From: a virus
Direction: 5' to 3' (one strand)
Virus record (IMG/VR): IMGVR_UViG_3300029996_000048
Span: 1-44,597 of that record
Length of the DNA: 44,597 nucleotides
Part shown: positions 1,324 through 37,460 of the stretch, piece after piece
Position numbering within the stretch: the first letter of the stretch is position 1
Layout: the number at the start of each line of letters is the position of its first letter
The notes under the pieces: generated by a model
What the model was told of the DNA's origin: nothing
What the model saw: only the letters and a program-made list of their open reading frames with translations
The model's database searches: none
Program-made: the position numbers and the translations under genes

Positions 1324-1326
1324 TCG

Positions 1327-4147: not shown

Positions 4148-4199
4148 GATGAAATTCCTCCTGATTTTTGTTAAAATTTGAAGCTCTCTCTGAGCCTCC

Positions 4200-5586: not shown

Positions 5587-5587
5587 A

Positions 5588-6019: not shown

Positions 6020-6032
6020 CTTTTTCGCTCCC

Positions 6033-6227: not shown

Positions 6228-6228
6228 C

Positions 6229-8713: not shown

Positions 8714-8725
8714 ACCGCCACCGCC

Positions 8726-11831: not shown

Positions 11832-12562
11832 TTGCGTGTTCCTTCCTCTCCAAGAAACTTCTGGATGAAATACTGCTGGCCTTTGCCGGTGACTTTCGTG
11901 GTCTTGCTCACCGTCACCGTACCGTCAGAATGGGTGATTGCCGTTTCCTTAACGGTGAAAAGCCCCAAGTCCATTGATTTTTGTGTTGGCATATTGAAGT
12001 CCGTGCCGTTCCGGCGAATCAGATAGCCGTTTTCGCGCATCCAACGGAACAGTCGGTGCTGCCCGATGTCAACGCCGTTTTGTTTCAGCAGCTTCGCCAG
12101 CTCGCCGACGAGGATCGAAGTCTTGCTTGCGCTGACCGCATCGGCAAAAAGCACCTTCGGCGCGTCGGCCTCGACCTTGCTTTCAAGCCGCTTGAGCTTG
12201 TCCCCTGCGATTTGCAGCGCGCGGGCCATGACTTTCTCCGGGCTGTTCCAGTCCTTTTCGATTTGAAGAAAATACTGGCGAGCCTGCTTGCCCTTTTCAT
12301 TGCGCTGGATCATGCAAAGCTCTTTCGCCATGTCGATGGTGAGCACTGCGTCGTCAACCGTTCGAGCAACCATGCGCTCACCCTCGTTTTGAACTCGCTC
12401 AATTTTGAGCGGGTTGAAATCTTCGCCCTCGGTGAACCCGTACTCGCACATTCTCGGGAACCAGTCTTTATAAGCCGTCTTCACTTCGAGAAAATCGTGC
12501 AGGTCTCGCGCAGAGACAGCAGGGCGGTCATTGTTGTAAGTGATCTTGATTAGCTCGTTCAT
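11828..12562 (-). CDS. phage antirepressor (AntA/Bro-N-like N-terminus plus KilAC-like C-terminus)
   Basis: VSARDLHDFLEVKTAYKDWFPRMCEYGFTEGEDF and LFADAVSASKTSILVGELAKLLKQNGVDIGQHRLFRWMRENGYL are classic antirepressor motifs. Confidence 0.8.
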   Translation of the reverse strand: MNELIKITYNNDRPAVSARDLHDFLEVKTAYKDWFPRMCEYGFTEGEDFNPLKIERVQNEGERMVARTVDDAVLTIDMAKELCMIQRNEKGKQARQYFLQIEKDWNSPEKVMARALQIAGDKLKRLESKVEADAPKVLFADAVSASKTSILVGELAKLLKQNGVDIGQHRLFRWMRENGYLIRRNGTDFNMPTQKSMDLGLFTVKETAITHSDGTVTVSKTTKVTGKGQQYFIQKFLGEEGTRK

Positions 12563-12762
12563 GTGTCCTCCTTACCCGTAAGCGCTTCTTCCTTTACCTT
12601 GAAGTGCTTGGCAAGCCGTTTGATGTGGCGCGGGTGCGGGTAGCAAGCGCCATCTTTCCAGCTCTTGATCGACGTCTGCGAGACATCGATCTCTTTCGCA
12701 AGACGATAATTCGTCTCGCCGCGCTCAGCCTGTAGCCGAGCAAGGTTTTCAGGGAACCCCAT
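12559..12762 (-). CDS. Cro-like XRE HTH regulator (first gene of the early operon)
   Basis: GGAGG lies 8 nt before the ATG at 12762. MGFPENLARLQAERGETNYRLAKEIDVSQTSIKSWKDG. Divergent from the CI-like gene. Confidence 0.75.
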   Translation of the reverse strand: MGFPENLARLQAERGETNYRLAKEIDVSQTSIKSWKDGACYPHPRHIKRLAKHFKVKEEALTGKEDT

Positions 12763-12791
12763 CTTTTTCGCCTCCAAATTTGATTAAAATG

Positions 12792-12820
12792 TTGACAAAT
12801 TGGAGCATTGGTGTTACTCT
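12792..12820 (+). promoter_or_regulatory. sigma-70-like promoter TTGACA-17-TACTCT with TG extension, pointing toward the CI-like gene
   Basis: Direct reading: TTGACA at 12792-12797, TACTCT at 12815-12820, TG at 12812-12813. Confidence 0.5.
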
Positions 12821-12900
12821 AAGTTTTGCTACAAACATTGATTCGCGCCAGCTCGATTTGTCGGGGTGGTCTGGTTTCTTATTACCTGTCCACGAATCTA

Positions 12901-12929
12901 ATTATAGTCGAAGTTAGACCATTAGTCAA
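12901..12929 (-). promoter_or_regulatory. strong sigma-70-like early (lytic) promoter TTGACT-17-TATAAT
   Basis: The reverse complement of 12924-12929 is TTGACT and of 12901-12906 is TATAAT, with an exact 17-nt spacer. Confidence 0.65.
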
Positions 12930-12965
12930 CCTAAATTAGACCGTCAAAATAACCTAAGTTAGACT
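12909..12965. promoter_or_regulatory. three operator-like repeats c(T/G)AA(G/A)TTAGAC(C/T) spaced 22-23 bp
   Basis: cgaagttagacc at 12909-12920, ctaaattagacc at 12931-12942, ctaagttagact at 12954-12965. Each holds the palindrome CTAA-N-TTAG (the first is imperfect). Confidence 0.65.
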
Positions 12966-12974
12966 GTGATTTTT

Positions 12975-13328
12975 ATGGGATTTGCCAGAAATTTTAACTA
13001 TTGCATGGATAGCGCAAGATACTCTTCGTATCGATTTGCTAAAATACTTGGTGTAAACTTACAAAGCGTTTCTAACTGGAAAAACGGCGTAGTTGTTCCG
13101 CACCCAAAGACCCGCCAGAAGATCGCCGACCATTTCGGCATCACGCTTGCCGAGTTGGACGGCGACGAGCTTCCCGCCCTCCCGAAGCAGGGCGCAGAAA
13201 AAGAGACCGCCGTCCCGAAGAACGACGGTTTAAACTATACCGATTTTGAATTGTTGCAGGCGTACCACGTTGCGGACGCCCGCACAAAAGAGGCGATCCG
13301 CACGCTGCTTGGGATCAAGGGGGAATAA
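12975..13328 (+). CDS. CI-like XRE HTH repressor
   Basis: YRFAKILGVNLQSVSNWKNG is an HTH pattern. Divergent from the cro-like gene. No SD sequence; start is ATG 12975 or GTG 12966, and the mRNA may be leaderless. Confidence 0.7.
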   Translation: MGFARNFNYCMDSARYSSYRFAKILGVNLQSVSNWKNGVVVPHPKTRQKIADHFGITLAELDGDELPALPKQGAEKETAVPKNDGLNYTDFELLQAYHVADARTKEAIRTLLGIKGE

Positions 13329-15588: not shown

Positions 15589-16716
15589 ATGGCGAATTGC
15601 ATCAAATGTAAAGCAGCGCTGCCGGATGGCGCGCTGTTTTGTCCTATGTGCGGCAAAAAGCAAGCATCTGTCGACCGAAAAGCCACAAAGCGCGGCAACG
15701 GGACGGGGACGGTCTATAAGCGCGGCTCTTCATGGGTAGCAGAAATCACAAAAGGCTATCGTGAAGAGGACGGCAAGCTGACCCGTGTGAAAGCAAAAAA
15801 ATGCGGCTTCCGCACAAAACGAGAAGCCTTAGAATATATTCCTATGCTGCGGACGCAAAAGCCCCGTGAAAAGGATATCACTTGGCGCAAGGCATATGAG
15901 CTTTGGTTCCCAACGCATCGCGCCGACAAGTCCACGCTGAATTGCTACGCCGCTGCCGAAAAGTATTTTGCACCGATCGAATTTATGAAGCTGGCCGCGG
16001 TCGAGATTGATGACATTCAAGAATGCATTGATGACTGCCCGCGCGCCAAACAGACGAAAAAGAATATGCGCACCGTGTGCAGCCTGATCTACAAGTATGC
16101 CGTTCCGCGCGGATACGCCCCTATGAGTATGGCCCCATATCTCACCGTCACCGGCGAAAACGCCGCGCCGCGCGCGAGCTTTGATGCCGACCAGATCGAG
16201 AAGATAAAAGAGGCGTGCGGCGTGATTCCATACGCCGACTATATCTACTGCATGTGTTACCTCGGCTTCCGCCCTACAGAATTTCTCGGCCTGTCGATTG
16301 ATACCTACGACAAGAAAGAAAAGGTGCTTCGCGCTGGTATCAAGACCGAAGCGGGCAAGAATAGAACCGTCACGATATCACCCAAGATTCAGCCCATCAT
16401 AGACCGGCTGTCAAAAGATAAGATATCCGGCGCGCTATTCTGTAACGAAGAGGGGAAAGCGTTCAGGTATGACTATTTCCGCGACGAGGTTTTCTATCCC
16501 ACATTAAAGGCAATCGGCATCGACAATCCAATCGAAAACAAGCGGCACAAGTATTCCCCCCATACATGCCGTCATACGTTCGCAACGCTGATGAAAAACA
16601 TTCAGGCGTCGGACAAGGACAAGCTCGAACTGATCGGTCATGCAAGTCCTGAAATGCTGCGCTATTATCAGGATGTCAACCTGACAGACCTCCGAAAAAT
16701 CACAGATGCGATATAG
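15589..16716 (+). CDS. int: tyrosine integrase with N-terminal zinc ribbon
   Basis: CIKCKAALPDGALFCPMCG; C-terminal HTCRHTFATLM...LIGHASPEMLRYY (R-H-R-Y catalytic pattern). Adjacent to attP. Confidence 0.9.
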   Translation: MANCIKCKAALPDGALFCPMCGKKQASVDRKATKRGNGTGTVYKRGSSWVAEITKGYREEDGKLTRVKAKKCGFRTKREALEYIPMLRTQKPREKDITWRKAYELWFPTHRADKSTLNCYAAAEKYFAPIEFMKLAAVEIDDIQECIDDCPRAKQTKKNMRTVCSLIYKYAVPRGYAPMSMAPYLTVTGENAAPRASFDADQIEKIKEACGVIPYADYIYCMCYLGFRPTEFLGLSIDTYDKKEKVLRAGIKTEAGKNRTVTISPKIQPIIDRLSKDKISGALFCNEEGKAFRYDYFRDEVFYPTLKAIGIDNPIENKRHKYSPHTCRHTFATLMKNIQASDKDKLELIGHASPEMLRYYQDVNLTDLRKITDAI

Positions 16717-21109: not shown

Positions 21110-24100
21110 TTACGCCGCTTTCTTCCTCATGATTGCAAGCTGCTCGTCCACCCGCGCGCGGTTCCAATGGCGAATGCTCTTTCCGACGCCGAAGTCCTCA
21201 AAGAGGGCTGCACGCTGTTTATCGGAAAGCCCCTTCTGCTGATAAACAAGCTCCATGATCTGCAAGCCTTCACTGTTGCTGATGGTGTCACCGTTTTTGT
21301 CCTTCAGGCTTTTGATCCCGCCTTTCGCCAGATAGAGCGCAATATACTGGGCTTCTGAAACGCCCGTTTTTTTGACGGTATCTATGGCCTTTGCCGCCCA
21401 CCCGTCCGTTTGGTAATTGCTCACGCTCATTTTCCCAACGATGTTGGCATATTCGTAGGCTTTCGCAACGGCATCTGCCTTATCGCCGTCGCTCATGGAC
21501 TTATAGCTCGCAAGTCCCGTGAGCTCGCTGACGATCTTATAGGAAGTCTGCCCGCGCTTTGTGGCGTACTTGACGTATTCCTCGCCGGTCAACTGTTTGT
21601 TTTCCTTATTCACGGTAAAAGATTTCGGTGCGCGCTGCGGCAGGACTTTGGTTTCACCGGTCGCCTCATACAGGCGGCTCAATTCATCTTCCATTTTGCT
21701 GCCGCTTACCTTCGAGGTATACGCGGGATTCGCAAAATTGTTAAATGCCCGCGCGACCACGCCTCCGGAGTTTTCCGTGCGCCCCCATGCGTCGATAAAG
21801 GGAATCTGCCCGTAGTCAACGCCCGGAATACGCGCGCTGGCCTTGCCGAGCGCATATTGCATATCCGGCGTCAGGAATTTGTTCTTATCCGTATAGGTCG
21901 TCATGCGCTCGCTTTCGCCCGTGCGCTCCGCCTGCCCGAAGACCGTCGGGATACCCTGCGTCAAATAACTCGTCGCCGCGCTTGCTACCGCACTGGTTAG
22001 TGCGTTTGTGTCCCCGGAGGACGCATACCCCACCGCGTCAAAAACGTCGTTCAGGCTTTGCAGACAGCTCATGGAAAGAAGCGGGTCCGTCACGTTGCTT
22101 GCTGCCTGAAGCATATCACTCATAGTGAGATACCCGTTGTTCGCCTGCATTTGCTCGTAAAGGTTTGCCCCGACGAAAAACGGAAGCGCTTCCGGCGCAA
22201 GCCAATCCAGCGTAATACTCGTGCCATTTGGCAGCTCCATCGCATATTCCTGATGCCCTTGCAGCTCGTCGAACTTTTTCTTCTTCTCGTCATCACCGCC
22301 GCTGCCGCGAAGAATGCCCTCTTTCGCCATATAAAGGCCGAGCATCATCAGCCCCGTGCCGGTCAGACCGGCGGCGGCACGGTCGATCATTTCGGTCGCC
22401 TGCATATTACCCTTCTGCACCTGCACAAGGTCATAGCTTATGCTTTTGAGGAAACCAATAGGGCTGTATTCCACGCCGCGCACCAGAATGTTGGCTGGTG
22501 TCTTGCGGAACGGCAGGATTCCTTCGGCGAGGGTGCTTCCGAGGCGTTTCATCTTGTTATCCCCGCGGTATCTGCCGAGATCGGAGATCATCTGTGAAAA
22601 CGCATTGGTGTCTCGATAGGTTGCTTTCTGCGCCTCTCTGATCGCGTATTCGCGTGCCGCTTCAATGCCTTTCCCGCCAGCGACCTGCTCCGCGGTAATG
22701 CCATTTGCTTTGCAGAATTGCGCCAGCGCCGCCGCGTAATGCGGCTTGGAGAACCATGCGTCTTCCGCATCCAGCGCCGTGCTGTTAGATTTGCGCATCG
22801 CTTCCAGCAGCTTTGGTTTGAAGATCGTGCGCCCTTCCTCGATTTCCTGTCGCACATTGACATTATCATTGTACTTGCCGCTGCCGAGAGCCTGCTCGCG
22901 AATGTTGGCATAGTCACTCCATGCCGCCTTGATAAGCCCTGCGTCCTTCGTCGTCAGGATTGCCTTCGTGCGTCCGACTTTGCCGCCGCTCACCGCGTTC
23001 GCAGCGCTCTCAATGCCTGCGCCGATGACGTTCTTTACCGTGACAGCAGGAACAAATCCTACGTTGCCAACGATGTTGCGCACATGCGTGCGTGGATTAC
23101 CAAGCATCGAAAAGTAGCGCCAAGCGTTCCATTTGTCAATGAAGCGGCTCGGCATCTGTCTGCCGATATCGCGATAGATTTCCTTCATCGCCTCGGTGCG
23201 CGCATCGTCGTCCTTTGCGTTCAGGAACTTCTCAGCGAGGTCGCGGTCAATCTTCAGATCAGGGGCCTTTTCCCCGTACTGCTTTTTGAGATCTTCTGTC
23301 AAGTTCTCCACGCTGCGCTGCGCCGCATAAAGCTGCGTACCGGGGTCCTGCTGCTTGAGCAGCCGCGTTGCCTGCAACGCCTGTGCCGCATTTCTCTGGC
23401 GCTTTACGATGGTGTCGAGCACATCGATAGCTGTCTCCACATCACCGCTGTTTGCTGCATTGTTGTAGAGCGCCCAGCCAATCGCCGTATTCTCCTTGCT
23501 GATTCCCTCTTTGGTGGAATTTTTCCATTTATTCAAGGTCTTTTGCCAGCCTTCGGTTTTGATGCGGCTTTCTGCGTCACTGATGGCCTGCTTGTCCGTA
23601 TAGCGGTCGTAGGAGAAATCTCCTTTTGCCACCATTCGTTCCAACGTCGGCACCATTGCGTCCGGCGTTGCCTTTGCTTCCAGCACCGTGCGGATCGTGC
23701 GGCTGACGTATTTGTCGTCCGCCGTTTTCTTCGGCACTTGTACCTCTCGGTACGCGCGCTCGCCCGCAGGGATATATCCGTACTTCTCTTTCAACGCTTC
23801 ATAGTTCGCCTCGGGGATCTCACGGGAGAATGCCGCATCATTCACGCTGTTGACTTTTGCTAAACGGTCCGCCTCATCTCCGGCGATATATTCCACCGTG
23901 TTGACCCCGGCATCCTGCAATGCGGCTTTCAGCCGCTCGCTGCTATTGTCTGGGATAACGGCGGCAAGGACTTCATCGAAGCCAACGGCACGCTGGGGCT
24001 TTGCCTCAAAGTAGCCCGTAGGGATTTCCAGGGCCGCCTTAAAGATGCCTTGGATGTCCTGCGCTGTCTTGCTGCTGATTTTATACCCGTCAGCGGCAAA

Positions 24101-27100
24101 GCTCTTGATGATAGCATCCACGGTCTTTTTCCCGCCCGCAGCGTTCTTTAAGGCCGTGGCAGCATAGTCGTAGTCCATTGTGCCGCCGGTTTTCTTAACG
24201 ATTTTCCCCAGCACATTGTTGATGGCCTCGTCCACCAGCTTTACCTTTGCGTCGTATTCACTTCCTTCCTCAAGGCCCAGCCGCCCGCTGTCCGACTTGA
24301 TGTCCTGGATGCTTTTGTAGCTCGGTGTTGCAAGAGCCTGGATGCCGGTAGCCGAAACACCCCAGAAGCCTTGTCCGCGTTCGCTCTGCGCATCCCGCAT
24401 CGCCTTGACGATATTCTCCAAAGTGTAGGCATAGTGGAGCTGCCCCCATGCACGCCTGTTCCCGTTGCGGTCGATGACCTCCTTGCCGTTGTAAAGGCCC
24501 TTTCGGCCCTCTACGCCGTCAAAAAGGTTGTGCAACCACGCCTCGTACTTTGCGGGGTCAACCGCTTCACGGATAGCCTTGTGCGTTGCTTCCGCGTCAA
24601 ATTCCATCCGGCGGGTCTCCGGCCCGTTCGCCAGGTAGTTCCTTGCGCGGACCAGCTCTGGCATCAGCTTCTTGGCGGGCAGGGCCTCGCTCTCAATGCC
24701 GTGTTCAGCCAGATAGCTGCTGTACGCGGCCTCCAGTTCTGCGCCGTGTGCCTCTACCCAGCGTTTTCGCGCCAGCATGGGGCTTTCGCCACCGACCGGG
24801 CGCATCTCCCCGATGACATCCTCCCCCAGCCTTTGGATAAGGTGGTCATACAGCTTTATTTTTTCATCATCCAACCGCGTCACGGTCTCCGTGTTGATGT
24901 TTTGCACCATGTTCTGGCCACTGTCTGCCAAGAACAGATTCATCATCTGGGCATCATCTTTGTGTCGCTCCAGCAGCCCGGCCTCGCCGCCGTTGCTGTT
25001 CAATGCGTCCTCCAGCTCGTTGGCATAATTGTAGAGGGGGCGGGCATTGTCGTAGCCGACGCGTTTCACCAGCTCGTAGTATTTGCTCCGCAGTCGTTTC
25101 TCCGCGTCGCTGTTCACCTCGTATTCCAGGCGTGGAGAAGTCGGCGTCCAGGCGTCCCCGCCGTAAACCTTGTTCCGGCTGTCCGCCTGCGGGTCGATGG
25201 TGGCCTTGTTGAACACCAGGGAGATGGGGCCGTACTTGGAATGGCCCTCGCTGGCCTTGACCACCGCAATAGAGGGCATGGGTAATCCGCCCAGCTTCAG
25301 CGCGGACATGATGCTGGACTCATCCTTGTTGTGGACGGCGATCAGCTTGTCAGTCTCTTCGACCGGCGTTTCCATGCTGAACTTCAGCTTGACATTTTGT
25401 ACGCCACGAGATAGACTATCTACAGAAGCATCCCCCCGCAGAGCGCCGCTGTTCGCAGCGGAAGAGCCGTCAATTTGGGGGATGCTTCTTTCTTGCATCT
25501 GCCCAATATTATAGATCATCTTACCGTCTGCACTCTGCGCTGTCGAGATTGTGATCTTGTAATACTTCCCATCAAAATCTTTGAAAAACGCCGTGCGATA
25601 ATTCCACCCGCGACTTGCCATGCCCCCATGGCGGCTGTTATGATCTACAACGTTTCTATCCCCCTTGACAGAAATCTGCGCCAACTCGTCAATATGCGAT
25701 GCTGCATTTACTTTTCGCTCAAATACCGCCTCGCTCATAGTACGCCCATCGCTGGTGTGGTTGTCGCTCAGTTTCCCTGCCGAGGTCGCAGTCAGGGCCA
25801 ATTCGTCGCCATCCGCGCCGATAAGCTTAACGTCTTGTCCACGGCGGATTTTTCCGTTAATATAGTCTTCCAGCTGTTCGCTCCAACTCTGCGGGTCATT
25901 TCCAAAAATGACCTGTCTGTCGGCGCGGACATATTTTTTGCCATCGGCAGCCTCTTCAATGCTCGCCCTGCCATTTATTTTGCTTGGCGGCGCACGCGTG
26001 CTTTCCTGCGCAACGGTTTCACTCTCCACCTTGATATGTGCAAGAAGGAATGCTGCCGCATCGCTGATCTCGCTGTCAGCGAAAATGTTCATATCGCCGA
26101 GGCTATCACAAACGATCTCTTCCCAGATTTCCTGCGCCGTCATTTCGGTGCCGGCATAAGCATCTTCATACGCCGTGCAGAGGGAGTCGACCTCACCGCT
26201 GGTAAAGGTCTTATCGATGCGCGTGCGTACCTCGTTCAAATCGACTTCGCCCTTTGCGATCATATCATGTCCGGCCTCATGCCGCATGATCTGGTACGAC
26301 GTAAATTCCGGATGATCCGCACGGATAAATACGCGGTCACCTGAAACGTAGCCGCGCACCTGGAACGCTTTCCCGCTCTTGTCACGGAACGTCAGATTAT
26401 TCCCGGCAAAAAACGTCACGCGCAGACCGCGCTCTTTGGCGAGGTCCTTCGCCTTGCGCATTTCCGCCGTCTCGTTCTTCACAAGATAGACGCTGTCATT
26501 GACCGCGCCTCTGCCGATGCCGAAGCTCGCAGTGCTTACTTTTTCTCCATAATCGAGCGCAGCTGCTTCGCTGTCTGCGAAGTGTCTCCCTTTCTTCCGG
26601 CTCTGATCTCGTCCTGTGCTTTCTTCCACGCCTCGTACTTCTCCGCGGGGATTCGCACCGTTATCCCGTTCGCTGCCTTCGCGTAAATGTACTGCTTCTC
26701 CATGTTCGGCTCCTTCCTGCTGCGCGTATTCTGCGCGCAGCTCGTCCATTGTCACCTCTCCTGTCTCGAGGGCAAGGCGGTTGTCAGTTACATACTTGTC
26801 AAAGCCGGTCGCCTGCGCCTCTGCGCCTGCGATCTGCTGCTTTGCTGCAATATAATCCGTATTGGGGGAAACCGCCGTTCCATCAACAGCAGTGTACCCA
26901 TTCGTCAGCATGTCGTCAAGAACGATCTCGAGCGTTTTCGCCGCTTTGACGTTCTCCTGCCCGTTATCGTTGATGATGCGCTGCGCTGCATCAATGATTT
27001 GCGTGCGCGTCAGACCCTCGTCCATCGCCTTGCGCATGGCGGGGGTCTCGAATATCTGATTGCTTCGCTGGTATCCGTTTGCTGTCCGCTGCCGTGCACC

Positions 27101-28801
27101 CTTCTGCTGCCCGCGTGAAAGGCTCATATCGGCGATACCTGCGATCTGCTCTGCCGCCGCGCTATAATAGCTGTGCAGCTCGGGGTGGTCGAACTGGAAA
27201 GCGTTCACGTTTCTGCCCGATACGTTTTCCTTCGTGCGGCTGTCAATGTGCTCGCCCGTTCCTGCCGCTTTCTTCGCGTCGTTTTGCCCGGCAATATAGC
27301 CTGCATAGGCCGTCTCATTCGTCGGGTTCGGGTTCGCCTTGCCCTCCACTCCCGCGTTGTAGGCGGGCAAAAAGTCCGCGACGTGCTGCGCCGTGTCCTT
27401 GCCATCCTGGTACGAGCCGCGAATCGCCTTTCGCCCGCTCTCACCGATCATGCTGTCGTAGCGCGCAAAGAGCCGGTCAGCAATACCGTTCACAATCTCC
27501 GCGTCGCTGCGCGTCTCTGTCTGCGTCTTCGGCAGCTCGGTACGACTGTCATAATAGCGCCCACCTCGGTTGCCGATGGCCTCCACGCCGCCGCCAAGCC
27601 CGCCGAGGATACCGCCAACGAGGAAGTCGTTCAGAATTTCCGATGCTTCCAGCTCGCTATAGCTCCCACCAAGCGTCTTGCCGTTATAGATCATCTGCAA
27701 GGCAGGCTGAATGAGGTCTTCGATGGCCTCCTCGCCGCCTTCTTCCAGAAACGACAATGCGATCTTTCCCGCCGCGCTGCGGGTCAGATTCTGCGTCGCT
27801 CTTTCGATGACGTCATCAAGGAAGCCCTTGCCGAACATCTTCTTGAACGGTGCTGCCGCGTTGCCGATCTTCTCGGTTGCCACGCTGAGTGCACCGCTCG
27901 CAAGGCCATAGTTGACCTGCTGCTCGCGCGTTGCGCCCGCTCTGCGCGCCTGCTGCGCGCCTCCACCCGCGCTGCGCATGAACATCGGGAAGAGCGCGCT
28001 GCCGCCCATAAAAGGCGTGAGGGCAATATCCATCCCCATCTGCGCACCCGCGACGCCCGCGTCAACGGCGAGTTGTCCGGCCTTGCCGAGCCCGCTTTTC
28101 GCCTTGTTGATATCCTTTGCGCCGCTGTCGGCCAGCCTGTCAGCGATGTCATAGGCTCCCACTGCGGCCTTTTCCCCGCTCTCGATGATCTTGCCGTACT
28201 TCTCACGCTCGCTGCGAGCGATGGCAATCGCCTCTTTCGTGTCGGCAATATCCTGCGCCGTCATCGACGGATCGCTCAGCGTCGCTTCCAATGCCGCAAT
28301 CTGCTGGTCCAACGTCTCCGCCTGAGCGCGATAGACCGGTGACATCGCTGTGCCGCCCTGCCCCTGCGCCACCACGCCGCCGAGATTGACAAAGCCCGCG
28401 CCATAGGTTTTCGCCGCGCCCTTGACGGTGTTGCCGACGCGCTGCGCGACCGTGGGGGCTTTTACCTCCTGCACGTGCTGTTCGAACGCTTCTTTGCTCT
28501 GGTAGTTCTTCGCGTCCTTCTTCTGTAAGGCCCCCTGCGCAAGATTCTGCGCAAGCGCGCTTTGATTTTTTGGCGTCACGACATTCTGCCGCGTGCGGAA
28601 CATGGGGCTGCTCGCCTTTGCGGGAATCGTTGCCGCCTTGCTCGGTTGCACTGTCGGCTTCTTCTGCACCACATTGCCCGTAGGGGATGTGTGCTGCACA
28701 TCCCCCGTTCTCACAAGCCTGCCGTGCGTGCCGGTTCCAACAACCGTTGTCTGGCCCTTGCTCGCTTCCACTTCCGGATTCGCTTTTACTAATCGTCCCA
28801 T
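21110..28801 (-). CDS. 2563-aa polyvalent virion/ejection protein with zincin HEXXH motif
   Basis: One uninterrupted ORF closes the structural operon. Gly/Ala-rich hydrophobic N-terminal third; IMRHEAGHDMI (HEAGH at 26267..26281); a ...YYKITISTAQSADGKMIYNIG module; hydrophobic helices in the C-terminal third. Confidence 0.8.
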   Translation of the reverse strand: MGRLVKANPEVEASKGQTTVVGTGTHGRLVRTGDVQHTSPTGNVVQKKPTVQPSKAATIPAKASSPMFRTRQNVVTPKNQSALAQNLAQGALQKKDAKNYQSKEAFEQHVQEVKAPTVAQRVGNTVKGAAKTYGAGFVNLGGVVAQGQGGTAMSPVYRAQAETLDQQIAALEATLSDPSMTAQDIADTKEAIAIARSEREKYGKIIESGEKAAVGAYDIADRLADSGAKDINKAKSGLGKAGQLAVDAGVAGAQMGMDIALTPFMGGSALFPMFMRSAGGGAQQARRAGATREQQVNYGLASGALSVATEKIGNAAAPFKKMFGKGFLDDVIERATQNLTRSAAGKIALSFLEEGGEEAIEDLIQPALQMIYNGKTLGGSYSELEASEILNDFLVGGILGGLGGGVEAIGNRGGRYYDSRTELPKTQTETRSDAEIVNGIADRLFARYDSMIGESGRKAIRGSYQDGKDTAQHVADFLPAYNAGVEGKANPNPTNETAYAGYIAGQNDAKKAAGTGEHIDSRTKENVSGRNVNAFQFDHPELHSYYSAAAEQIAGIADMSLSRGQQKGARQRTANGYQRSNQIFETPAMRKAMDEGLTRTQIIDAAQRIINDNGQENVKAAKTLEIVLDDMLTNGYTAVDGTAVSPNTDYIAAKQQIAGAEAQATGFDKYVTDNRLALETGEVTMDELRAEYAQQEGAEHGEAVHLREGSERDNGANPRGEVRGVEESTGRDQSRKKGRHFADSEAAALDYGEKVSTASFGIGRGAVNDSVYLVKNETAEMRKAKDLAKERGLRVTFFAGNNLTFRDKSGKAFQVRGYVSGDRVFIRADHPEFTSYQIMRHEAGHDMIAKGEVDLNEVRTRIDKTFTSGEVDSLCTAYEDAYAGTEMTAQEIWEEIVCDSLGDMNIFADSEISDAAAFLLAHIKVESETVAQESTRAPPSKINGRASIEEAADGKKYVRADRQVIFGNDPQSWSEQLEDYINGKIRRGQDVKLIGADGDELALTATSAGKLSDNHTSDGRTMSEAVFERKVNAASHIDELAQISVKGDRNVVDHNSRHGGMASRGWNYRTAFFKDFDGKYYKITISTAQSADGKMIYNIGQMQERSIPQIDGSSAANSGALRGDASVDSLSRGVQNVKLKFSMETPVEETDKLIAVHNKDESSIMSALKLGGLPMPSIAVVKASEGHSKYGPISLVFNKATIDPQADSRNKVYGGDAWTPTSPRLEYEVNSDAEKRLRSKYYELVKRVGYDNARPLYNYANELEDALNSNGGEAGLLERHKDDAQMMNLFLADSGQNMVQNINTETVTRLDDEKIKLYDHLIQRLGEDVIGEMRPVGGESPMLARKRWVEAHGAELEAAYSSYLAEHGIESEALPAKKLMPELVRARNYLANGPETRRMEFDAEATHKAIREAVDPAKYEAWLHNLFDGVEGRKGLYNGKEVIDRNGNRRAWGQLHYAYTLENIVKAMRDAQSERGQGFWGVSATGIQALATPSYKSIQDIKSDSGRLGLEEGSEYDAKVKLVDEAINNVLGKIVKKTGGTMDYDYAATALKNAAGGKKTVDAIIKSFAADGYKISSKTAQDIQGIFKAALEIPTGYFEAKPQRAVGFDEVLAAVIPDNSSERLKAALQDAGVNTVEYIAGDEADRLAKVNSVNDAAFSREIPEANYEALKEKYGYIPAGERAYREVQVPKKTADDKYVSRTIRTVLEAKATPDAMVPTLERMVAKGDFSYDRYTDKQAISDAESRIKTEGWQKTLNKWKNSTKEGISKENTAIGWALYNNAANSGDVETAIDVLDTIVKRQRNAAQALQATRLLKQQDPGTQLYAAQRSVENLTEDLKKQYGEKAPDLKIDRDLAEKFLNAKDDDARTEAMKEIYRDIGRQMPSRFIDKWNAWRYFSMLGNPRTHVRNIVGNVGFVPAVTVKNVIGAGIESAANAVSGGKVGRTKAILTTKDAGLIKAAWSDYANIREQALGSGKYNDNVNVRQEIEEGRTIFKPKLLEAMRKSNSTALDAEDAWFSKPHYAAALAQFCKANGITAEQVAGGKGIEAAREYAIREAQKATYRDTNAFSQMISDLGRYRGDNKMKRLGSTLAEGILPFRKTPANILVRGVEYSPIGFLKSISYDLVQVQKGNMQATEMIDRAAAGLTGTGLMMLGLYMAKEGILRGSGGDDEKKKKFDELQGHQEYAMELPNGTSITLDWLAPEALPFFVGANLYEQMQANNGYLTMSDMLQAASNVTDPLLSMSCLQSLNDVFDAVGYASSGDTNALTSAVASAATSYLTQGIPTVFGQAERTGESERMTTYTDKNKFLTPDMQYALGKASARIPGVDYGQIPFIDAWGRTENSGGVVARAFNNFANPAYTSKVSGSKMEDELSRLYEATGETKVLPQRAPKSFTVNKENKQLTGEEYVKYATKRGQTSYKIVSELTGLASYKSMSDGDKADAVAKAYEYANIVGKMSVSNYQTDGWAAKAIDTVKKTGVSEAQYIALYLAKGGIKSLKDKNGDTISNSEGLQIMELVYQQKGLSDKQRAALFEDFGVGKSIRHWNRARVDEQLAIMRKKAA

Positions 28802-30031
28802 TTAGCCCTCCTCGTAGGAATAGCCGTACTGCGTCAGCAGCTTCTGCATTTCTGCCTTCTGATCACTCGTCATCAGCGGCCATGCCTTGTCGAGCGTCGA
28901 AAGGATACGCTCGCCTTCACCGTTTTTCAGCGACGTGTTGAATCCGCTCAGTAGAGCAATAAACTGACCCTGCGGCAGTGTCTTGCCGCTGCTGCCGCTT
29001 CCGCTGCCGCCGCCCTGCCCCTCGAGCCAGCTCTCATAATCGTCATACAAACTGCTTGAAGAGGAAAAGCCGTACTTCTTATAGTTGTTGGAGATAAAGC
29101 TCTTGGGATAGCCGCTTGCCTGCGCCGCTGCGAACAAGCCATCATAATCCGCCTCGCCGCCGCCCGTAGGCGTGGTGCTGACGCGGGTATTTCTTCTCGC
29201 GGCCTGCTGCGCGGCCTGCTGCAATTTATACTGCCATTCCGCATTGTATCGTGCATCATCGATGGCGTCGCGTTCCTTCTGGTAGTTATAGTTCAGCTTG
29301 TCCTGCTGCTTCTGATACGCCAGCGCATCCGCCGTCTGCTGGTCGCCCACCTGATCGCGCGCAAGCTGATAGAGGTAATTGCGGTCAGCCAGCCAGCGGT
29401 TGTAGTTGTTGTCCTCAAGGCCGATGAGCGTATTCAGGTCGGCGCGGTCGCCGCTCAATTTATCCTGATACATGCTATAGGCAAGCTGCTGTAATTCGGG
29501 GATCTTGTCCGTCATCTGGCTCATCTGGTAGTCGCTCGCCTGCTGGCTCGCTGCCACCGCCGCCGTGGACGGCATCCCGCCCGTCATCACTGCCGCCTTG
29601 CCGAGCACATCCTCCGCGCTGCGGTCTGCCTCGCGCGTATACTGCTTTCGGTACTGCTGATAGAGTGGGTCGCTCACCGCGTCGTAGGAAAACGGCGTGC
29701 GATTCAGCAGCGCGTCGAGCTTTGCGCCGATCTGTCCGCTCTGATCGTAGTTGTAGCTGCTGTCGCCCAGCTTATCGAGCCAGCTCGTGTCAGCCTTTGC
29801 AGGGCTCGCACCCGTTCCGAGTTTGATGTACTTGCTGCCGTCCACGCCGCCGGAATAGTCGTACTTCGCACGAATTTTCTCCGCCGCGTCGTGCGCCGCC
29901 TGCTGGCCCGCCTTGTCTCCCTCGGCATATGCCTTGTTGTAGGCCTCGGTATACTGCCGGATGAGATCAAGGTCGCCCGAATCGTTGATGAGCGTCAGGT
30001 CTGTATTCTTGTGTTTGAAATTATCTGCCAT
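28802..30031 (-). CDS. putative internal virion/ejection protein
   Basis: 409 aa, Q/Y/D-rich and predicted helical, with a GGGSGSGSSG linker. Sits immediately upstream of the giant protein. Confidence 0.4.
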   Translation of the reverse strand: MADNFKHKNTDLTLINDSGDLDLIRQYTEAYNKAYAEGDKAGQQAAHDAAEKIRAKYDYSGGVDGSKYIKLGTGASPAKADTSWLDKLGDSSYNYDQSGQIGAKLDALLNRTPFSYDAVSDPLYQQYRKQYTREADRSAEDVLGKAAVMTGGMPSTAAVAASQQASDYQMSQMTDKIPELQQLAYSMYQDKLSGDRADLNTLIGLEDNNYNRWLADRNYLYQLARDQVGDQQTADALAYQKQQDKLNYNYQKERDAIDDARYNAEWQYKLQQAAQQAARRNTRVSTTPTGGGEADYDGLFAAAQASGYPKSFISNNYKKYGFSSSSSLYDDYESWLEGQGGGSGSGSSGKTLPQGQFIALLSGFNTSLKNGEGERILSTLDKAWPLMTSDQKAEMQKLLTQYGYSYEEG

Positions 30032-30038
30032 TGTCCCC

Positions 30039-31625
30039 TCACTTTCTGCCGCCCGTCACGTATTCGTACTCGAGCGCATAGAGCCGGTATTCTCCTGTGG
30101 CTTTGATTTTTAATCTAAAGTGGTCGCAGCGGCGGATCGGGCAGTTGAGCGTGAAAACGTCTTTCTCCTGTGCCCCGCAGCGGTCGACCTCTTCCCACGC
30201 GCCGCCGTCGAACTTGACAAGGAACACGACCGTTGCGCCCTTTTCGCATTCCAGCCGCGCCCGTACGCGCTGCACGCGCTTCGCGTCGAATGAGCCGCCG
30301 TCATAGTCAGCAAACTCCGCCTCGCTAATAACAGCTCCCTCGCGTGTTGCGCCGGTCGGGATATCTGCCGGATTCCCCAGCAGCACGCACCCGCCGTCTA
30401 CTAAGGCCATGATACCGCCCGAATAGGCCATTTGCACCACGGCAAGCGCATCTTCCTTATGCCACACGCCGTTCTCGCTGCTGTAGCAGTACAGCGCCGC
30501 CTTGCCATCCTCTTTCAGGCTCACGTAGTAGTTGAGGCCGTCGCTTCCTCCCACCGCGTCGGAGAGGCGCACATCGTCGCCCAGCGTGCGGGAGATGCAG
30601 CGCGGCATTCCTCCGCTGTACGCCATGACGCCGACCTTTGAGAGGTAATAGAGCGTTTCACCCGCCACAGCAAGGCTCTTGTGGCTGCCCTTCATCACGC
30701 CGAGAACAGCACTCGACATGAGCTGGAAGTTTGTCGGAATCGTGCCGTACATCTTGAATATTTTGTCTTCTTTGAAAAAGCACGGGTAGCCAAGGTAGCT
30801 CACGCACGCCGTGAACGCTCCCGCCGTGCCGCTCTCCACGCTGAACGCGTCCGTGGATAGCCCGTCAAACACATTCCAGTTGTACGGGTCGCCGAGCTTT
30901 GAAGCAAAGATGCTGTCGCCCTTGCAGCCCCACACGCGGTTTTCGTTCGTGCAGACGAAGTCCATATCGGGAACGCTGCGCTTGAGCGTGACTGTTCCGG
31001 GCTCCGTGATGCTTTCCTGCCCATCGGGCAGGCGGAAAGTATTTTCATAAAAGCGCAGCGTCTTTTTGTCCTCGCTGATCTCGCGGATGATGGGCGTGCG
31101 GTTGTTGTAGGGCTCCTTTGTGCAGCCAGAGATCGTCACCGCGTCGCCCACGTTGAATGGGAACGCCGCGCCGGTCGTCGTGATGCTGTTTGCCGCCGCC
31201 TTTTCGTCGGCATACGTGCCATTCCCGAATTTCAGCCCCGCCGCGGCGTAGCTCGCCTCCATCGGCTTGATCGTGCCGTCTTTTTCGCACACAATCTTAT
31301 CAGGGAAGATGAGCACGCGTTCTCCCAGCGCACAGAAAGTCTTTTCGCTGTCTGCGACCGTCGTCTTCTCTTCGCCGTTGATGTAGAGCTTCGTTCCGTA
31401 TACCTCGTAGAGCTTGCCTGCGCTGAAAATGCCGTTCGCCTTGCCCATACCCTTTCGGACGGTATAGCGCCGCGCACGGGGGGCAAGAAGCGGGAAGTAT
31501 CGCGCCGACAGGTTTTTCATGTCGTAGAGCTCGCCGCCCGCCGCGCCGAATGTGTGGTTGATCCCGCCAAATTTCTCCTGCTGCACGCGCCGATTCATAT
31601 ACGCCGTGATCTCAGGCAGTCTCAT
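30039..31625 (-). CDS. putative tail hub/nozzle-like structural protein
   Basis: 528-aa beta-rich ORF in the tail region. Assignment rests on size and position only. Confidence 0.35.
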   Translation of the reverse strand: MRLPEITAYMNRRVQQEKFGGINHTFGAAGGELYDMKNLSARYFPLLAPRARRYTVRKGMGKANGIFSAGKLYEVYGTKLYINGEEKTTVADSEKTFCALGERVLIFPDKIVCEKDGTIKPMEASYAAAGLKFGNGTYADEKAAANSITTTGAAFPFNVGDAVTISGCTKEPYNNRTPIIREISEDKKTLRFYENTFRLPDGQESITEPGTVTLKRSVPDMDFVCTNENRVWGCKGDSIFASKLGDPYNWNVFDGLSTDAFSVESGTAGAFTACVSYLGYPCFFKEDKIFKMYGTIPTNFQLMSSAVLGVMKGSHKSLAVAGETLYYLSKVGVMAYSGGMPRCISRTLGDDVRLSDAVGGSDGLNYYVSLKEDGKAALYCYSSENGVWHKEDALAVVQMAYSGGIMALVDGGCVLLGNPADIPTGATREGAVISEAEFADYDGGSFDAKRVQRVRARLECEKGATVVFLVKFDGGAWEEVDRCGAQEKDVFTLNCPIRRCDHFRLKIKATGEYRLYALEYEYVTGGRK

Positions 31626-33572: not shown

Positions 33573-34373
33573 TTAGACCTCCGTGAAATACTGCCCCGCC
33601 AGCTCATGCGGCAAATACTGCAAGACGATCTTGCCGCCCGCGGCCTCGCCGATACGCTCGCACTTGTACGTCTTGCCGTCCTCGCCGTCGAGGTAATACT
33701 TGCCGTACTCGTATTCCATGCCGCGCGCTGCGGGGATGGGGTCTGCCTGCGTGCCTGCGTGGTCGACGTTGATGATCGTCCAGAGATTGGGCGTCTTGTC
33801 CGGCGTATAGTCGGCTTGCGAGGTATGACCCAGACGGCACTTGTACACCTTGCCGCCGTAGCTCCTGCGGTCGCCCTTAGCGCAAGCCACGGGGTACGCC
33901 CATGCCGTGATGAGTTCCGGCACGCTCGCCGCCTCGCCGTCGCTCAGGCTGACCGCTGCCTGCTCGATAATGGGGCGCAGTTTCACCGCGCGGGCATACG
34001 TGACCGGCCCACCCGCAAGGGCGGTAACGGTCGCTTTGGCGCTTTCCGTTTCCGTGGGCTTGCCCATCTTAATGGATACCGTGCCGTCGCGGTGGTCGGT
34101 GATGTCGCCCGCAAGACTGTACTCGCTGTTGTCGTACTCATTGACGACTTCCTTGGTCTCGCCCGTGGGCTTCCCCTGCTCGTCCAGCACGTCCACCATA
34201 TCGCGCTGCACGATGCTCCACGGCGTATTGTCGGGCAGCAGTGCCGCCACGGCGTCGTGGGACATGGTGAGGTAGATGGTTTTGGTGTCACGTCCGTCCC
34301 ACGAGCGGTCAGTACGGTTGCCGTTGACCGTAGCGGGGTATTCCGTGTTGTTGACTTTGATGTGGATACTCAT
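33573..34373 (-). CDS. fibre-associated protein with CBM5/12-like C-terminal motif
   Basis: KGDRRSYGGKVYKCRLGHTSQADYTPDKTPNLW matches the YxGxxYxCxxxHTSxxxWxP-type carbohydrate-binding motif. Confidence 0.5.
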   Translation of the reverse strand: MSIHIKVNNTEYPATVNGNRTDRSWDGRDTKTIYLTMSHDAVAALLPDNTPWSIVQRDMVDVLDEQGKPTGETKEVVNEYDNSEYSLAGDITDHRDGTVSIKMGKPTETESAKATVTALAGGPVTYARAVKLRPIIEQAAVSLSDGEAASVPELITAWAYPVACAKGDRRSYGGKVYKCRLGHTSQADYTPDKTPNLWTIINVDHAGTQADPIPAARGMEYEYGKYYLDGEDGKTYKCERIGEAAGGKIVLQYLPHELAGQYFTEV

Positions 34374-34385: not shown

Positions 34386-35495
34386 CTATTGCGGCGTGGC
34401 GTTCTCTTGCAGCCACGCCAGAAGATCGCCCGAGGGGGCTTCGTCGAAAGTAATGGTGCGGTATGCTGTGTCGCGCCACCCGCGACGCTGGTCCCATGCA
34501 GTGGGGGCAAAACCGCTTCCCAAATATGACATGTTGGGATTGTCCCCCCTGTTTATTATTTGGATTCCTGTAATTGTTTTGGAGCCTCCTTCGTAGTGTG
34601 CGCGTGTGCTAAACGTGGTTGACGTAGTAGAAACAGGGATTGAAAGTGTCTGATTGAAGTACCACGTCAAGCTCACATCCGGCTCAAAGTTGATATCATA
34701 CCCTGTCCCGCCGATGAGCGTCCTGCCCTTGAGGATATTGTACACCGTGCCGTTGACGAGGCACTTCCCACCCTTAATTTCATAGGCTGTGCCATTGACG
34801 AGGGTCTTGTGTGTAGCGGGAGGGGGTGGCGTGACATTGCCGGAGCTGTCGACTTCCATGTCGGGCGGAAGAATGAGCGCGGGGCGGATGCCAGTTGAGT
34901 TGGATGCTTTGCTGGTCTCGCCGACGCCGTCGTAGTTGACGAGCCACACCAAGCTGGTGCTGTAGGTGAACGGTGAACGGAGCCCCCAGTAGTCGGCCGA
35001 GCCGTTCAGTTTCGCAATACGCTTGTTGTTGGCGGACGTGTCGGTTCCAGATTCAAAGTAGGACAGCTTCGCACCATCTTGCGGGAAGTAGGGGTTATCG
35101 CTGGTCGTGAAGCCAATCTCGTAGCCGGACAGCAGGAAAATCTTGCAGAGCAAGCCGTTAGCACCACTCTGATCCGAGCCACTGGAACCGCCGTTCTTGC
35201 GATACGGAATCTTCACCTGCTTGATTGCGTCCCTGATGTTGCTCTCAAACGCGTTCAAGAGCGTGCTGTTCAGTATGCTGTGGATGGTGCTGTTCTCCAG
35301 ATTGTTCACATCCGAGCTGTGCCATCGTGTGGCCTCGAAGATGTCCTTCATCAGCAACCAAGTGCCGTCGCAGGATTCGTCGTACAGAGAACTCGGTTTG
35401 CCCTGATGGACGACGATAAACTCTTTCGCTGCACCGTTGACGTTCAGTTTGACGATACTGCCGACGGCTTTGGTGCCGAGTTTTGCACTTGCCAT
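34386..35495 (-). CDS. receptor-binding-like protein (DUF6273-like N-terminal domain)
   Basis: YWGLRSP...GIRPALILP is the DUF6273-type signature as I remember it. Sits in the fibre cluster. Confidence 0.5.
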   Translation of the reverse strand: MASAKLGTKAVGSIVKLNVNGAAKEFIVVHQGKPSSLYDESCDGTWLLMKDIFEATRWHSSDVNNLENSTIHSILNSTLLNAFESNIRDAIKQVKIPYRKNGGSSGSDQSGANGLLCKIFLLSGYEIGFTTSDNPYFPQDGAKLSYFESGTDTSANNKRIAKLNGSADYWGLRSPFTYSTSLVWLVNYDGVGETSKASNSTGIRPALILPPDMEVDSSGNVTPPPPATHKTLVNGTAYEIKGGKCLVNGTVYNILKGRTLIGGTGYDINFEPDVSLTWYFNQTLSIPVSTTSTTFSTRAHYEGGSKTITGIQIINRGDNPNMSYLGSGFAPTAWDQRRGWRDTAYRTITFDEAPSGDLLAWLQENATPQ

Positions 35496-35507: not shown

Positions 35508-37460
35508 TTATTGAAAGTACCAGTTGATAGCGTAGTTCTCGGTGGGCGTGGTCTCCGATGCAACCAGCGTCTGCTTGGTGATGTTGCCGCTTGCGATATA
35601 GTCGCTGCCGCGCGTTGCCGCCACCAGCCCGCCCGAGCCGTTGCCCTTGATGAGAGAGGTGGTGGAGGGCACGTTCACGGGGCCTGCGGGGCCCTGCGGG
35701 CCGGTCGCACCGGTATCGCCTTTCTCGCCCCGCTCGCCCTGGTCTCCCTTGGGGCCTTTGATGTTGACCGTCGCGGGATTCGCAAGCCCGCCGTCGTTCG
35801 TCCAACTCAGGTCTCCCGCCGCGGACACAGCAGGGGTAAAGGTCGCACCTTTCGCGCCGTCCGCACCGGCAGGGCCCTGCGGGCCCGTCAGGCCTTGCGG
35901 GCCGGTTTCACCTTGCGGACCAGTCTTGCCCTGCGGGCCCTGTTCACCCTGCGGACCCCTTGGCCCCTCTGGTCCGGTATCTCCCTTCGCGCCGTCAGTG
36001 CCGGCAGGCCCCCGTGCGCCCGTGTCGCCCTTCGGGCCCTTGAGGTTCACGGTCTGCGGATTCGCCTTGCCGCCGTCGTTCGTCCACGACAGGTCGCCGT
36101 CGTCGCTCATGCTCGGCGTGAACGTCACGCCGTCACGTCCGTTTGTCCCGTCCTTACCCGGCGCACCGTCTGCGCCGTCTTTCCCAGGCAGGCCGTCCGC
36201 GCCCTTTGCGCCGTCCTTGCCGGGGGCTCCATCCGCCCCGGCAGGGCCTTGAGGACCAGTCTCGCCGGGATCGCCTTTCGGGCCCTGCGGACCCTCGGGC
36301 CCCGTGTCACCTTTCGCGCCCTGCAAGGGGCCGTTGTTGATGAACTCGCCGGTAATACCGTCGAAAATGTAGATGTCGTAGGGCTCCGCCGTGCCCACGC
36401 CGTAGGCATCGCCCGCCGCTGCGGTCGCTTTCTGCGCGGCGTCCAGCGCAGCCTTCGTGCCGTAATAGCCCAGCACCTTGAAGCCTTTGCCGGTGTCCCC
36501 TTTGGGGCCTGCTGGCCCCGTCTCTCCTTGCGGGCCGGTCTGCCCCTGCTGGCCTTGTTCGCCCTTCGGGCCGCGCGGACCTTCGGGGCCGGTCGGTCCG
36601 GTCGCGCCGATGTCACCTTTCTCTCCTTGGGGGCCGGTATCGCCCTTGTCGCCTTTCAGCGCGGCAAGCTGTGCCGCCGTGAAGTCGGAATAGGTAAAGG
36701 CATCGCCCTTGTCGCCCTTTGTGCCCTGCGGGCCAGCGGGGCCAATCTCGCCTTGAATGCCCTGCTCTCCCTGCGGGCCGCGCGCGCCGGTTTCACCTTT
36801 GGGGCCCTGCGGACCGGTCGCGCCGGTTGCGCCGGTCTCGCCTTTTGGACCCTGTGCGCCGGTTGCGCCCGTGTCGCCCTTGGGGCCGGTCGAGCCTGTG
36901 TCGCCCTTTGGTCCCTGTGCGCCGGTGTCGCCCTTGGGGCCGACCTCGCCCTGCGGCCCGGTCGCGGCAACGCCCGTGTCGGCAAAAGCGCCCGCCGCGG
37001 CGTCCCACTTGAACCAGTTGCCCGTGGTCTCGTCGACGTATGGCATCTTGGAAACCGCCGTCTCCGCATCCGCCGCCGCCCGCAAAACTTCATCGACCCA
37101 GCTTTGATAGGCCGGAGGCGGTGCCTCTCCGCTGTTTTCCAGCGTTTCGCGCACGCGTGTTTTATATATCTGGCTCTTCACAATGGTATCGCCAACGGTA
37201 TAGCGCAGCTCTGCCGCGCCCTCACCGGCCACCGCCGTATCAACACTCGATACCAGCCACACGAGCGCGCCGTCTTCTTCTGTCACCGTCACGGGATACG
37301 GCTGCGCATCGCCGTTTCGCTGCACAATCAGGCTCGCCACGCCCTCGCCATAGCCCTCGCGCCACTTTCCCAGCACGTCAAAGACGACCTTGCGCGCCTG
37401 ATTCTCGCCCCTGCGCCCGAGCTTGATCTCTTCGAGCGCGTAAGCATTTTCAATAACCAT
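35508..37460 (-). CDS. collagen-like (GXY) tail/head fibre protein with BppU-like N-terminal domain
   Basis: Several long G-X-Y tracts ([22 protein letters not shown]...). The N-terminus [12 protein letters not shown]...PYPVTV resembles BppU_N. An internal duplicated non-collagen module is present. Confidence 0.8.

Follow-up and report, generated by a model that had tools for sequence, protein, structure and literature searches.

N4 gp50 (the virion RNA polymerase) and gp60 of Pseudomonas phage H66 are homologues of the internal virion protein IVP-D that host domains destined for the cytoplasm of the infected cell (Hardies et al. 2016, PMC4819975). In phage Syn5, gp43, gp44 and gp45 are virion core proteins analogous to T7 gp14, gp15 and gp16 (PMC5850374). 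Polyvalent proteins with hubs of the metallopeptidase (MPTase) and PBECR kinds, whose genes neighbour virion genes and which are predicted to be injected, were defined by Iyer, Burroughs, Anand, de Souza and Aravind (2017, PMC5512222), who also described N4-like virion RNA polymerase polyvalent proteins with MPTase, PBECR1 or ART domains. Here, we analysed a giant gene of the IMG/VR virus record IMGVR_UViG_3300029996_000048, of which positions 1 to 44,597, i.e. the whole stretch of 44,597 nucleotides (nt), are called the window below. In our view, this gene is likely to belong to a temperate prophage of podovirus type that lacks a tape measure and resides in gut Oscillospiraceae (Gemmiger-like host), and to encode its large internal virion (core/ejection) protein, i.e. 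a counterpart of T7 gp16 and Syn5 gp45 (IVP-D) that has been expanded into a polyvalent effector carrier.

The gene is a single uninterrupted open reading frame (ORF) on the minus strand (21110..28801) with an ATG start and 2563 amino acids (aa); it takes up 7692 of the 44597 nt of the window (17.2 %), and the initial annotation, which had described a 7.7-kb ORF of 2563 aa making up 17 % of the genome, is borne out by these coordinates. Among 5.8 billion clustered proteins, 2849 clusters matched it at E<=1e-3. The 120 best-scoring ones were mostly full-length (2518-2599 aa), came from many independent human-gut assemblies and included one named Gemmiger formicilis protein and one entry called 'MAG TPA: nuclease [Caudoviricetes]'. 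An assembly artefact was rejected as an explanation of the giant frame, because the ORF is intact across hundreds of independent assemblies.

The C-terminal module and the scaffold of the family

The C-terminal module (C-module; aa 1661-2563, 21113..23821, minus strand) has no match in Pfam or PHROG. Its AlphaFold2 (AF2) model, built from 42 sequences in a shallow alignment at 41-64 % identity, is all-alpha with about 45 helices (pLDDT 73), and WNAWRY..NPRTH.RN, LPFRKTPANIL and TLDWLAPE are its invariant motifs. With this model, Foldseek retrieved 54 matches from BFVD at E<=1e-3, gut-phage homologues included, among which were the 'Internal virion protein' of Synechococcus phages S-RIP1 (6.6e-11), S-CBP3 and S-CBP2, the internal virion protein of Pelagibacter phage Eyrgjafa (7.8e-11) and several 'large polyvalent protein associated domain' proteins. 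Profile comparison led to the same family: hhalign aligned the C-module profile (A3) with a six-protein IVP-D alignment including Syn5 gp45 over 516 columns (probability 99.7 %, E=4.6e-26), and hmmsearch matched gp36 of Pelagibacter phage HTVC041P at E=1.5e-10. The gene of the latter, whose family includes Syn5 gp45, P60 and P-GSP1, lies after tubular tail A/B and three genes for small or medium proteins and before the tail fibre, i.e. at the gp16 position. By these profile and model comparisons, the C-terminal 900 aa are remotely homologous to IVP-D (T7 gp16-position) of marine Autographiviridae. The earlier remark that more than 1000 residues match nothing that can be named holds for Pfam, but about 900 of them can now be described as IVP-D-like.

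Relatives retrieved from IMG/VR and from the GTDB species representatives share the C-terminal ~870-900 aa at 33-61 % identity. Proteins with a C-module are 1068 to >4150 aa long and have unrelated middles, in which the cargo between the scaffold modules includes ART-PolyVal, MuF_C, PBECR3, LPD3, KTSC and ADP-ribosyl exotoxin domains and 0-3 HEXXH motifs. A second shared module (N-module) was found near the N-terminus in 49 of 66 full-length relatives with an iterated hidden Markov model (HMM). The two modules are fused in 62 loci and split in locus L111, from a goat-rectum Oscillospiraceae metagenome-assembled genome, where adjacent separate ORFs starting at ~7243 and ~9439 encode an N-module protein of 731 aa and a C-module protein of 1068 aa; they are split likewise in L093, and these pairs resemble the split/fused pair of F116 and H66 gp60 reported by Hardies et al. 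Members of the family were found in at least 79 GTDB species representatives, with phage structural neighbours in every case where these are detectable. Judged from these alignments, the N-module and the C-module are the conserved scaffold and the middle is exchangeable cargo, which here consists of a gluzincin-like peptidase, a conserved module without named function and a cassette with a predicted PBECR5 RNase. Public annotations of the family name the cargo only ('nuclease', 'ADP-ribosyltransferase', 'LPD3', 'EF-hand').

A very long, largely helical protein with Gly/Ala-rich hydrophobic stretches, in a genome with no other tape-measure candidate, could also be read as a tape measure (or something taking its place) that belongs to a long-tailed phage and bears accessory domains, with the Gly-rich stretches as its membrane-interacting segments. 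The initial annotation had seen no recognisable tape measure in this phage, and indeed neither tape-measure nor tube, sheath or baseplate families gave a PHROG match to any window ORF scanned; the giant protein itself matches no tape-measure family of PHROG, Pfam or NCBIfam. Furthermore, there are no tube, sheath, chaperone, distal tail or baseplate genes around the gene, which is directly followed by holin and lysin, the C-module is homologous to IVP-D of the short-tailed Autographiviridae, and lengths from 1068 to >4150 aa in otherwise similar cassettes would be odd for a length ruler. On family, neighbourhood, IVP-D homology and length spread we rejected this reading, which we regard as very improbable.

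Modules upstream of the C-module

At least seven separable modules, a number within the range of two to fifteen functionally unrelated domains given for polyvalent proteins (Iyer et al. 2017), were recognised from Pfam, independent occurrence elsewhere and natural deletions, and their borders were set from three sources, i.e. natural variants, diverged relatives and the representative search. All of them are encoded on the minus strand. Pfam models were compared at E<=10 with the entire protein and with each of seven segments, and NCBIfam was also scanned; PBECR5 was the sole match. The only PHROG match of the giant protein was phrog_22978 (unknown function), and a PDB sequence search returned nothing meaningful. 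When aa 421-1142 were searched against 1.84 billion representatives, 1467 matches were obtained; among those listed, most cover aa ~690-950 or ~940-1140 and others cover both, and the matches other than short fragments are proteins of 2000-3800 aa. All peptides quoted in the initial annotation were located in the protein, where they had been placed or a few codons away: AGQLAV... (aa 241-275), FLVGGILGG... (aa 393-410), DHNSRHGG...QMQER (aa 1053-1105, nt 25487-25645), PFRKTPANIL... (aa 2097-2114) and AAAGLTGTGL... (aa 2142-2159, nt 22325-22378).

The chain begins with a basic low-complexity N-terminus (aa 1-110, 28472..28801; K+R 0.15, D+E 0.04), of which close relatives carry several alleles. 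The N-module (aa 111-430, 27512..28471), which belongs to no known family, combines Gly/Ala-rich hydrophobic stretches with an EGxEE motif and a GGxxGGxxG end. Its profile (A5) matched nothing in Pfam or PDB, the hits to prion protein, XaxA and phiX174 H being non-significant and confined to Gly-rich stretches; the score against HTVC041P gp36 was not significant (3.8 bits), and a further homologue search with the profile yielded no new domain context. The Gly-rich end GGILGGLGGG (aa ~388-430, 27512-27640) gives weak, non-significant matches to the hydrophobic glycine-rich region of prion protein (E 0.1-1), which agree with a glycine-zipper-like segment and are not evidence of homology. A helical region of unrecognised function (aa 431-690, 26732..27511), which occurs separately in other giant proteins, and a linker (aa 691-744) come next.

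The N-terminal third had been described as Gly/Ala-rich with hydrophobic stretches. The peptides are there, but the excess of G+A is modest (0.19-0.36 per 100 aa vs 0.15-0.26 elsewhere). The description of parts of the protein as membrane modules is not supported: the hydrophobic segments quoted earlier have 19-residue Kyte-Doolittle maxima of 1.04-1.22, and the maximum of the whole protein is 1.38, below the transmembrane threshold of 1.6. Two segments are glycine-zipper-like, i.e. the GGxxGGxxG at the end of the N-module and an AGLTGTGL..LG helix in the C-module (aa 2142-2159, pLDDT ~85), and it is possible that such segments insert in the membrane after ejection.

The gluzincin-like metallopeptidase module (aa 745-930, 26012..26569) contains the sequence HEAGH at aa 841-845 (nt 26267-26281), exactly where the initial annotation had put a metallopeptidase motif. 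This is the sole HEXXH of the protein, against 0.026 expected from composition, and it is followed about 50 residues later by E895xxxD899 (nt 26105-26119). An HExxH followed by an ExxxD, the Glu of which serves as third zinc ligand, is the gluzincin arrangement, found in peptidases of the thermolysin, neprilysin and lethal-factor types. Conservation was assessed on 90 aligned representative segments, each standing for one 50%-identity cluster: H841, E842, H845, D899 and Y878 are conserved at 100 %, E895 and D829 at 99 % and H830 at 91 %. In the AF2 model of aa 740-1142, built from a 36-sequence alignment, the module reaches a pLDDT of mostly 83-97 per 10-residue block and is predicted to fold as a helix, a five-strand sheet, the HEXXH helix and the ExxxD helix, the two motif helices (model residues 96-110 and 150-162) lying behind the sheet. 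The layout fits what has been described for polyvalent-protein MPTases (PMC5512222). In Pfam, MPTase-PolyVal included, the module has no match, nor does it match the MPTase region of N4 gp50. The assignment to the gluzincins is thus one by motif, as distinct from one by similarity to a known family or structure. As regards the zincin proposed earlier, an HEXXH invariant in the 90 representatives and a confidently modelled helix speak for it, whereas a significant match to a solved structure or to MPTase-PolyVal was not obtained. With motif, conservation and model taken together, aa 745-930 probably form an active peptidase.

The next module (aa 940-1110, 25472..25984) is strongly conserved and its function was not recognised. 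Among 75 representatives K1010, K1030, H1036 and E1039 are invariant and D1038, D1053, H1058, W1066, Y1068, R1069, D1075, Y1081, S1086 and Y1097 are present in at least 92 %, with D1038, D1053, H1058, R1069 and S1086 at 95-99 % (S1086 at 97 %). The AF2 model (pLDDT 75-86) places helices with H1036 at aa 1024-1043 and three long strands at aa 1066-1105, a predicted topology that is compatible with a BECR-type fold and falls short of establishing membership. Aligned by hhalign with PBECR5, PBECR3, MuF_C and LPD3, the module gave probabilities of at most 1 %, compared with 54 % for PBECR3 versus MuF_C as positive control. It has no Pfam match at E<=10, and its best match in PDB with Foldseek was the non-significant 6cp9, a CdiA-CT/CdiI complex of K. 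pneumoniae 342 (E=0.2, probability 0.6, TM 0.45), the toxin of which is a BECR tRNase (PMC9086364). The resemblance of aa ~1000-1100 to PBECR domains noted initially is therefore not upheld by Pfam, hhalign or Foldseek. Conservation among homologues does hold for this segment as well as for the HEXXH, but for neither did Foldseek find a significant match in PDB. The initial statement that PBECR modules accompany zincins was right in kind, because a genuine PBECR5 is present in the same chain; its place is aa 1140-1333 and not aa 1000-1100.

The PBECR5 cassette and its junctions

PBECR5 (Pfam PF18814) was identified at aa 1140-1333 (24803..25384) with E=3.2e-64 and 217.5 bits against a cut-off of 25, over profile positions 3-192 of 239. 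It is followed by a PBECR5-associated extension of ~320 aa (aa 1334-1655), which corresponds to PHROG 22978. As had been proposed, the protein is polyvalent as Iyer et al. 2017 use the term: it has this 217-bit PBECR5, its relatives have ART-PolyVal, MuF_C, PBECR3 and LPD3 at the same position, and PBECR, ART and MuF-C are, like MPTase, hub domains of the polyvalent network.

Together, PBECR5 and the extension form an exchangeable cassette (aa 1143-1655, 23837..25375) flanked by KFSME and AFSRE junctions. We compared proteins P0002-P0091 with this segment. Near-identical relatives share 98-99 % identity with the giant protein in the C-module and 96-99 % both in the zincin and in aa 940-1110, whereas their PBECR5 domain comes in three alleles of 100 %, ~51 % or ~43 % identity and, in the diverged alleles, the extension has 34-53 % identity. 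The N-module (33-99 %) and the first 110 aa (42-99 %) likewise occur as several alleles. The breakpoints of the cassette fall at the KFSME and AFSRE junctions; in P0003, for instance, identity changes at aa ~1132-1150 and at aa ~1640-1654. The cassette is missing in natural variant P0022 (2074 aa), which is 99 % identical up to aa 1142 and resumes near aa 1632, and partly missing in P0053 (2291 aa), which is without the PBECR5 core. In these comparisons the PBECR5 cassette can be exchanged, can be dispensed with and diverges fast, as one would expect of a conflict effector. This would make it an obvious candidate for an effector of counter-defence or host shutoff in a major gut lineage.

The same deletions can be turned to another account, namely that the protein has a structural role in ejection and nothing more, its enzyme-like modules being decayed relics or spacers, with no effector delivery or autoprocessing. 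Since natural variants lack the PBECR5 cassette, it must be dispensable for particle function, and the zincin and aa 940-1110 have no significant match to solved enzymes. However, the catalytic-type residues do not vary among the 50%-identity representatives, which points to purifying selection on activity, and PBECR5 scores far above its family threshold. In addition, alleles diverging down to 43 % identity inside flanks that are 96-99 % identical follow the pattern of conflict effectors rather than that of spacers. We therefore hold the relic explanation to be unlikely and retain that of an ejection protein with effector cargo.

Three junctions could be placed in the giant protein, i.e. RASIE (aa 945-949, 25952-25969), KFSME (aa 1139-1143, 25370-25387) and AFSRE (aa 1656-1660, 23819-23836). 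The motif at module boundaries reads xS[IMR]E here, and D[IV]R[FY]S[RL] is its common form in relatives (loci L054-L155, proteins P0121-P0390), where the latter was observed 40 times in 151 relatives against 0.6 in shuffles, counts that are not independent events because domain tails share ancestry. Speculatively, the junctions may be processing and/or recombination sites. A bolder picture, which we think rather doubtful, would make them the recognition sites of the built-in zincin in a self-cutting vehicle whose cassettes recombine there, with aa 940-1110 as a new enzyme family in the infected cell and an IVP-D ejection machinery working in Firmicutes. To our knowledge, short-tailed phages outside Picovirinae are barely known in Firmicute hosts.

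Genomic setting, proposed role and comparison with known systems

The minus strand holds all genes from ~17 kb to the right end of the window. In transcription order, the virion module starts with TerS (44215-44574), followed by TerL, the portal (best named match in Bacillus phage PK1, 25.6 % identity), a 352-aa protein and the major head protein. Next come a collagen-like tail fibre of 650 aa (35508-37460), which matches dozens of PHROG tail-fibre families via its Gly-X-Y repeats, a 369-aa DUF6273 / 'Hoc-like' protein (34386-35495) and a 266-aa protein with a CBM5/12 carbohydrate-binding module (33573-34373), the last two being likely surface or receptor-binding decorations. The region of the fibre gene has a G+C content of 0.65, compared with ~0.56-0.59 around it. 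A coiled-coil 'needle-like' protein is encoded between the CBM5/12 protein and a 528-aa protein (30039..31625) assigned to PHROG 511 'internal virion protein' (E=7e-53), and a 409-aa protein of unrecognised function (28802..30031) directly precedes the giant gene. The latter is last in the virion operon, as the initial annotation had it, and this place, after the PHROG 511 and 409-aa proteins and before an XhlA/holin-like gene and the endolysin on the same strand, would speak for its assignment to the internal virion proteins. Among 102 related loci, the 528-aa protein co-occurs with the giant gene in 24 and the 409-aa protein in 27.

After the endolysin, a tyrosine integrase is encoded on the plus strand; the early/lysogeny regions extend over 1-13000 and 15589-16716, and the left arm encodes a DNA methyltransferase, a DnaC-like loader, a replication initiator, RecT, a RecE-like exonuclease and an Ant anti-repressor. 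G+C content and skews shift around 12-16 kb, where the transcription strand switches. The prophage nature of the element is shown by its integrase, terminase, portal and head genes, and by its gene content the genome is that of a temperate phage without a recognisable long-tail module.

The position beside the lysis genes would also fit a moron-like insertion, i.e. a late cytoplasmic multi-enzyme protein at the end of the operon that is never packaged and acts in host takeover, in superinfection exclusion or as an abortive toxin. Host genomes, too, capture polyvalent proteins (PMC5512222). Against this, a scaffold of ~1200 aa has been retained by relatives as distant as 33 % identity, in at least 79 GTDB species representatives and with phage structural neighbours wherever these are detectable, its C-module is homologous to a virion core protein family, and a late RNase or peptidase would have no obvious use in a dying cell unless delivered to the next host. 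We judge a protein confined to the producing cell to be quite unlikely. The packaged-and-ejected role gains indirect support from the homology between C-module and IVP-D. In such an ejection protein, a few copies would be packaged on the portal alongside the two proteins encoded upstream and would leave the particle before the DNA, and the N- and C-modules would help to build or extend a conduit through the envelope. The cargo would enter the cytoplasm, the zincin may cut the chain at inter-module linkers, the RNase would attack host or defence RNAs and the cassette would diversify under host counter-selection.

Several points weigh against this role. We infer presence in virions from the comparisons above, and tblastn searches of 50,697 phage records with the giant protein, with the portal and with the 528-aa protein retrieved no cultured relative. 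The podovirus morphology is likewise inferred, because no tubular tail A/B homologue was identified anywhere in the window. The 528-aa and 409-aa proteins have no detectable similarity to IVP-B, IVP-C, T7 gp14/15, N4 gp51 or PDB entries. The C-module was negative by hhalign or hmmsearch against T7 gp13-16 and N4 gp50-52 (hhalign <1 % for T7 gp16 and N4 gp50, taken as single sequences), and with Foldseek it gave alpha-solenoid noise and no significant match in PDB; the null result with T7 gp16 and N4 gp50 agrees with a remark in the literature calling homologues of IVP-C and IVP-D 'notoriously difficult to identify' (PMC4819975). Neither did the model of the zincin and aa 940-1110 match PDB at E<=1e-3 with Foldseek, nor the zincin profile (A1) any PDB sequence, and no classical transmembrane helix was found. 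Finally, the host would be a Firmicute, in which the trans-periplasmic role of the T7 core proteins may not apply.

With this assignment, a very abundant family of giant and mostly unannotated proteins, encoded by prophages in human-gut Oscillospiraceae and related Clostridia, acquires an IVP-D identity. The whole protein is matched by more than 2800 clusters (90 % identity), and the zincin or neighbouring modules are matched by 1467 50%-identity representatives. Compared with IVP-D of marine and environmental Autographiviridae (Syn5 gp45, HTVC041P gp36 and IVP-D of Desulfovibrio phage ProddE), the homology extends over the C-terminal 900 aa. Shared features are the motifs NPxTH.xN and LPFxRTPxN, the Gly-rich helix and the all-alpha fold; in addition, each would be the longest gene within the set of internal-protein genes that closes the tail/core genes. 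The giant protein differs in being about twice as long, in having ~1200 aa of enzyme cargo inserted ahead of the IVP-D-like part, and in belonging to a temperate phage of a Firmicute host whose neighbouring genes are not detectably IVP-B or IVP-C.

With N4 gp50 and H66 gp60 it has in common that an ejection scaffold is fused to enzymes acting in the cell just infected and that the chain also contains a zincin-type peptidase; unlike them, it has no RNA polymerase or methylase, its cargo being the zincin, aa 940-1110 and the PBECR5 cassette. The polyvalent proteins of Iyer et al. resemble it in joining unrelated domains in one chain, in their MPTase-like hub, PBECR RNase and virion neighbours and in the shuffling of domains among orthologues. 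It differs from them in lacking a MuF or portal fusion as packaging handle, and the Pfam models derived from their study miss its N-module, its C-module, aa 940-1110 and its zincin clade.

A 2839-aa protein of Acinetobacter phage Ab9 (PP763254.1, CDS0016) shares the PBECR5 and extension unit at 24.7 % identity over 544 aa. It has no similarity outside this unit, and the C-module profile does not match it. In this 38.7-kb phage its gene comes directly after those of two 'internal virion proteins' and of a 773-aa lysin-type protein, and it is an independent example of a giant with a PBECR5 unit encoded after internal virion proteins.

Within the full-text collection that was searched, no publication names both 'polyvalent protein' and 'internal virion protein', two literatures that the present assignment links. 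The design of an ejection protein with cargo is known already (Hardies et al. 2016; Iyer et al. 2017), so that the gain lies in annotation and testable detail and not in a new principle. What is new, as annotation, is a Clostridial gut-prophage branch of IVP-D with polyvalent cargo, together with the uncharacterised N-module, aa 431-690, aa 940-1110 and the PBECR5 extension, and the allele structure of the cassette.

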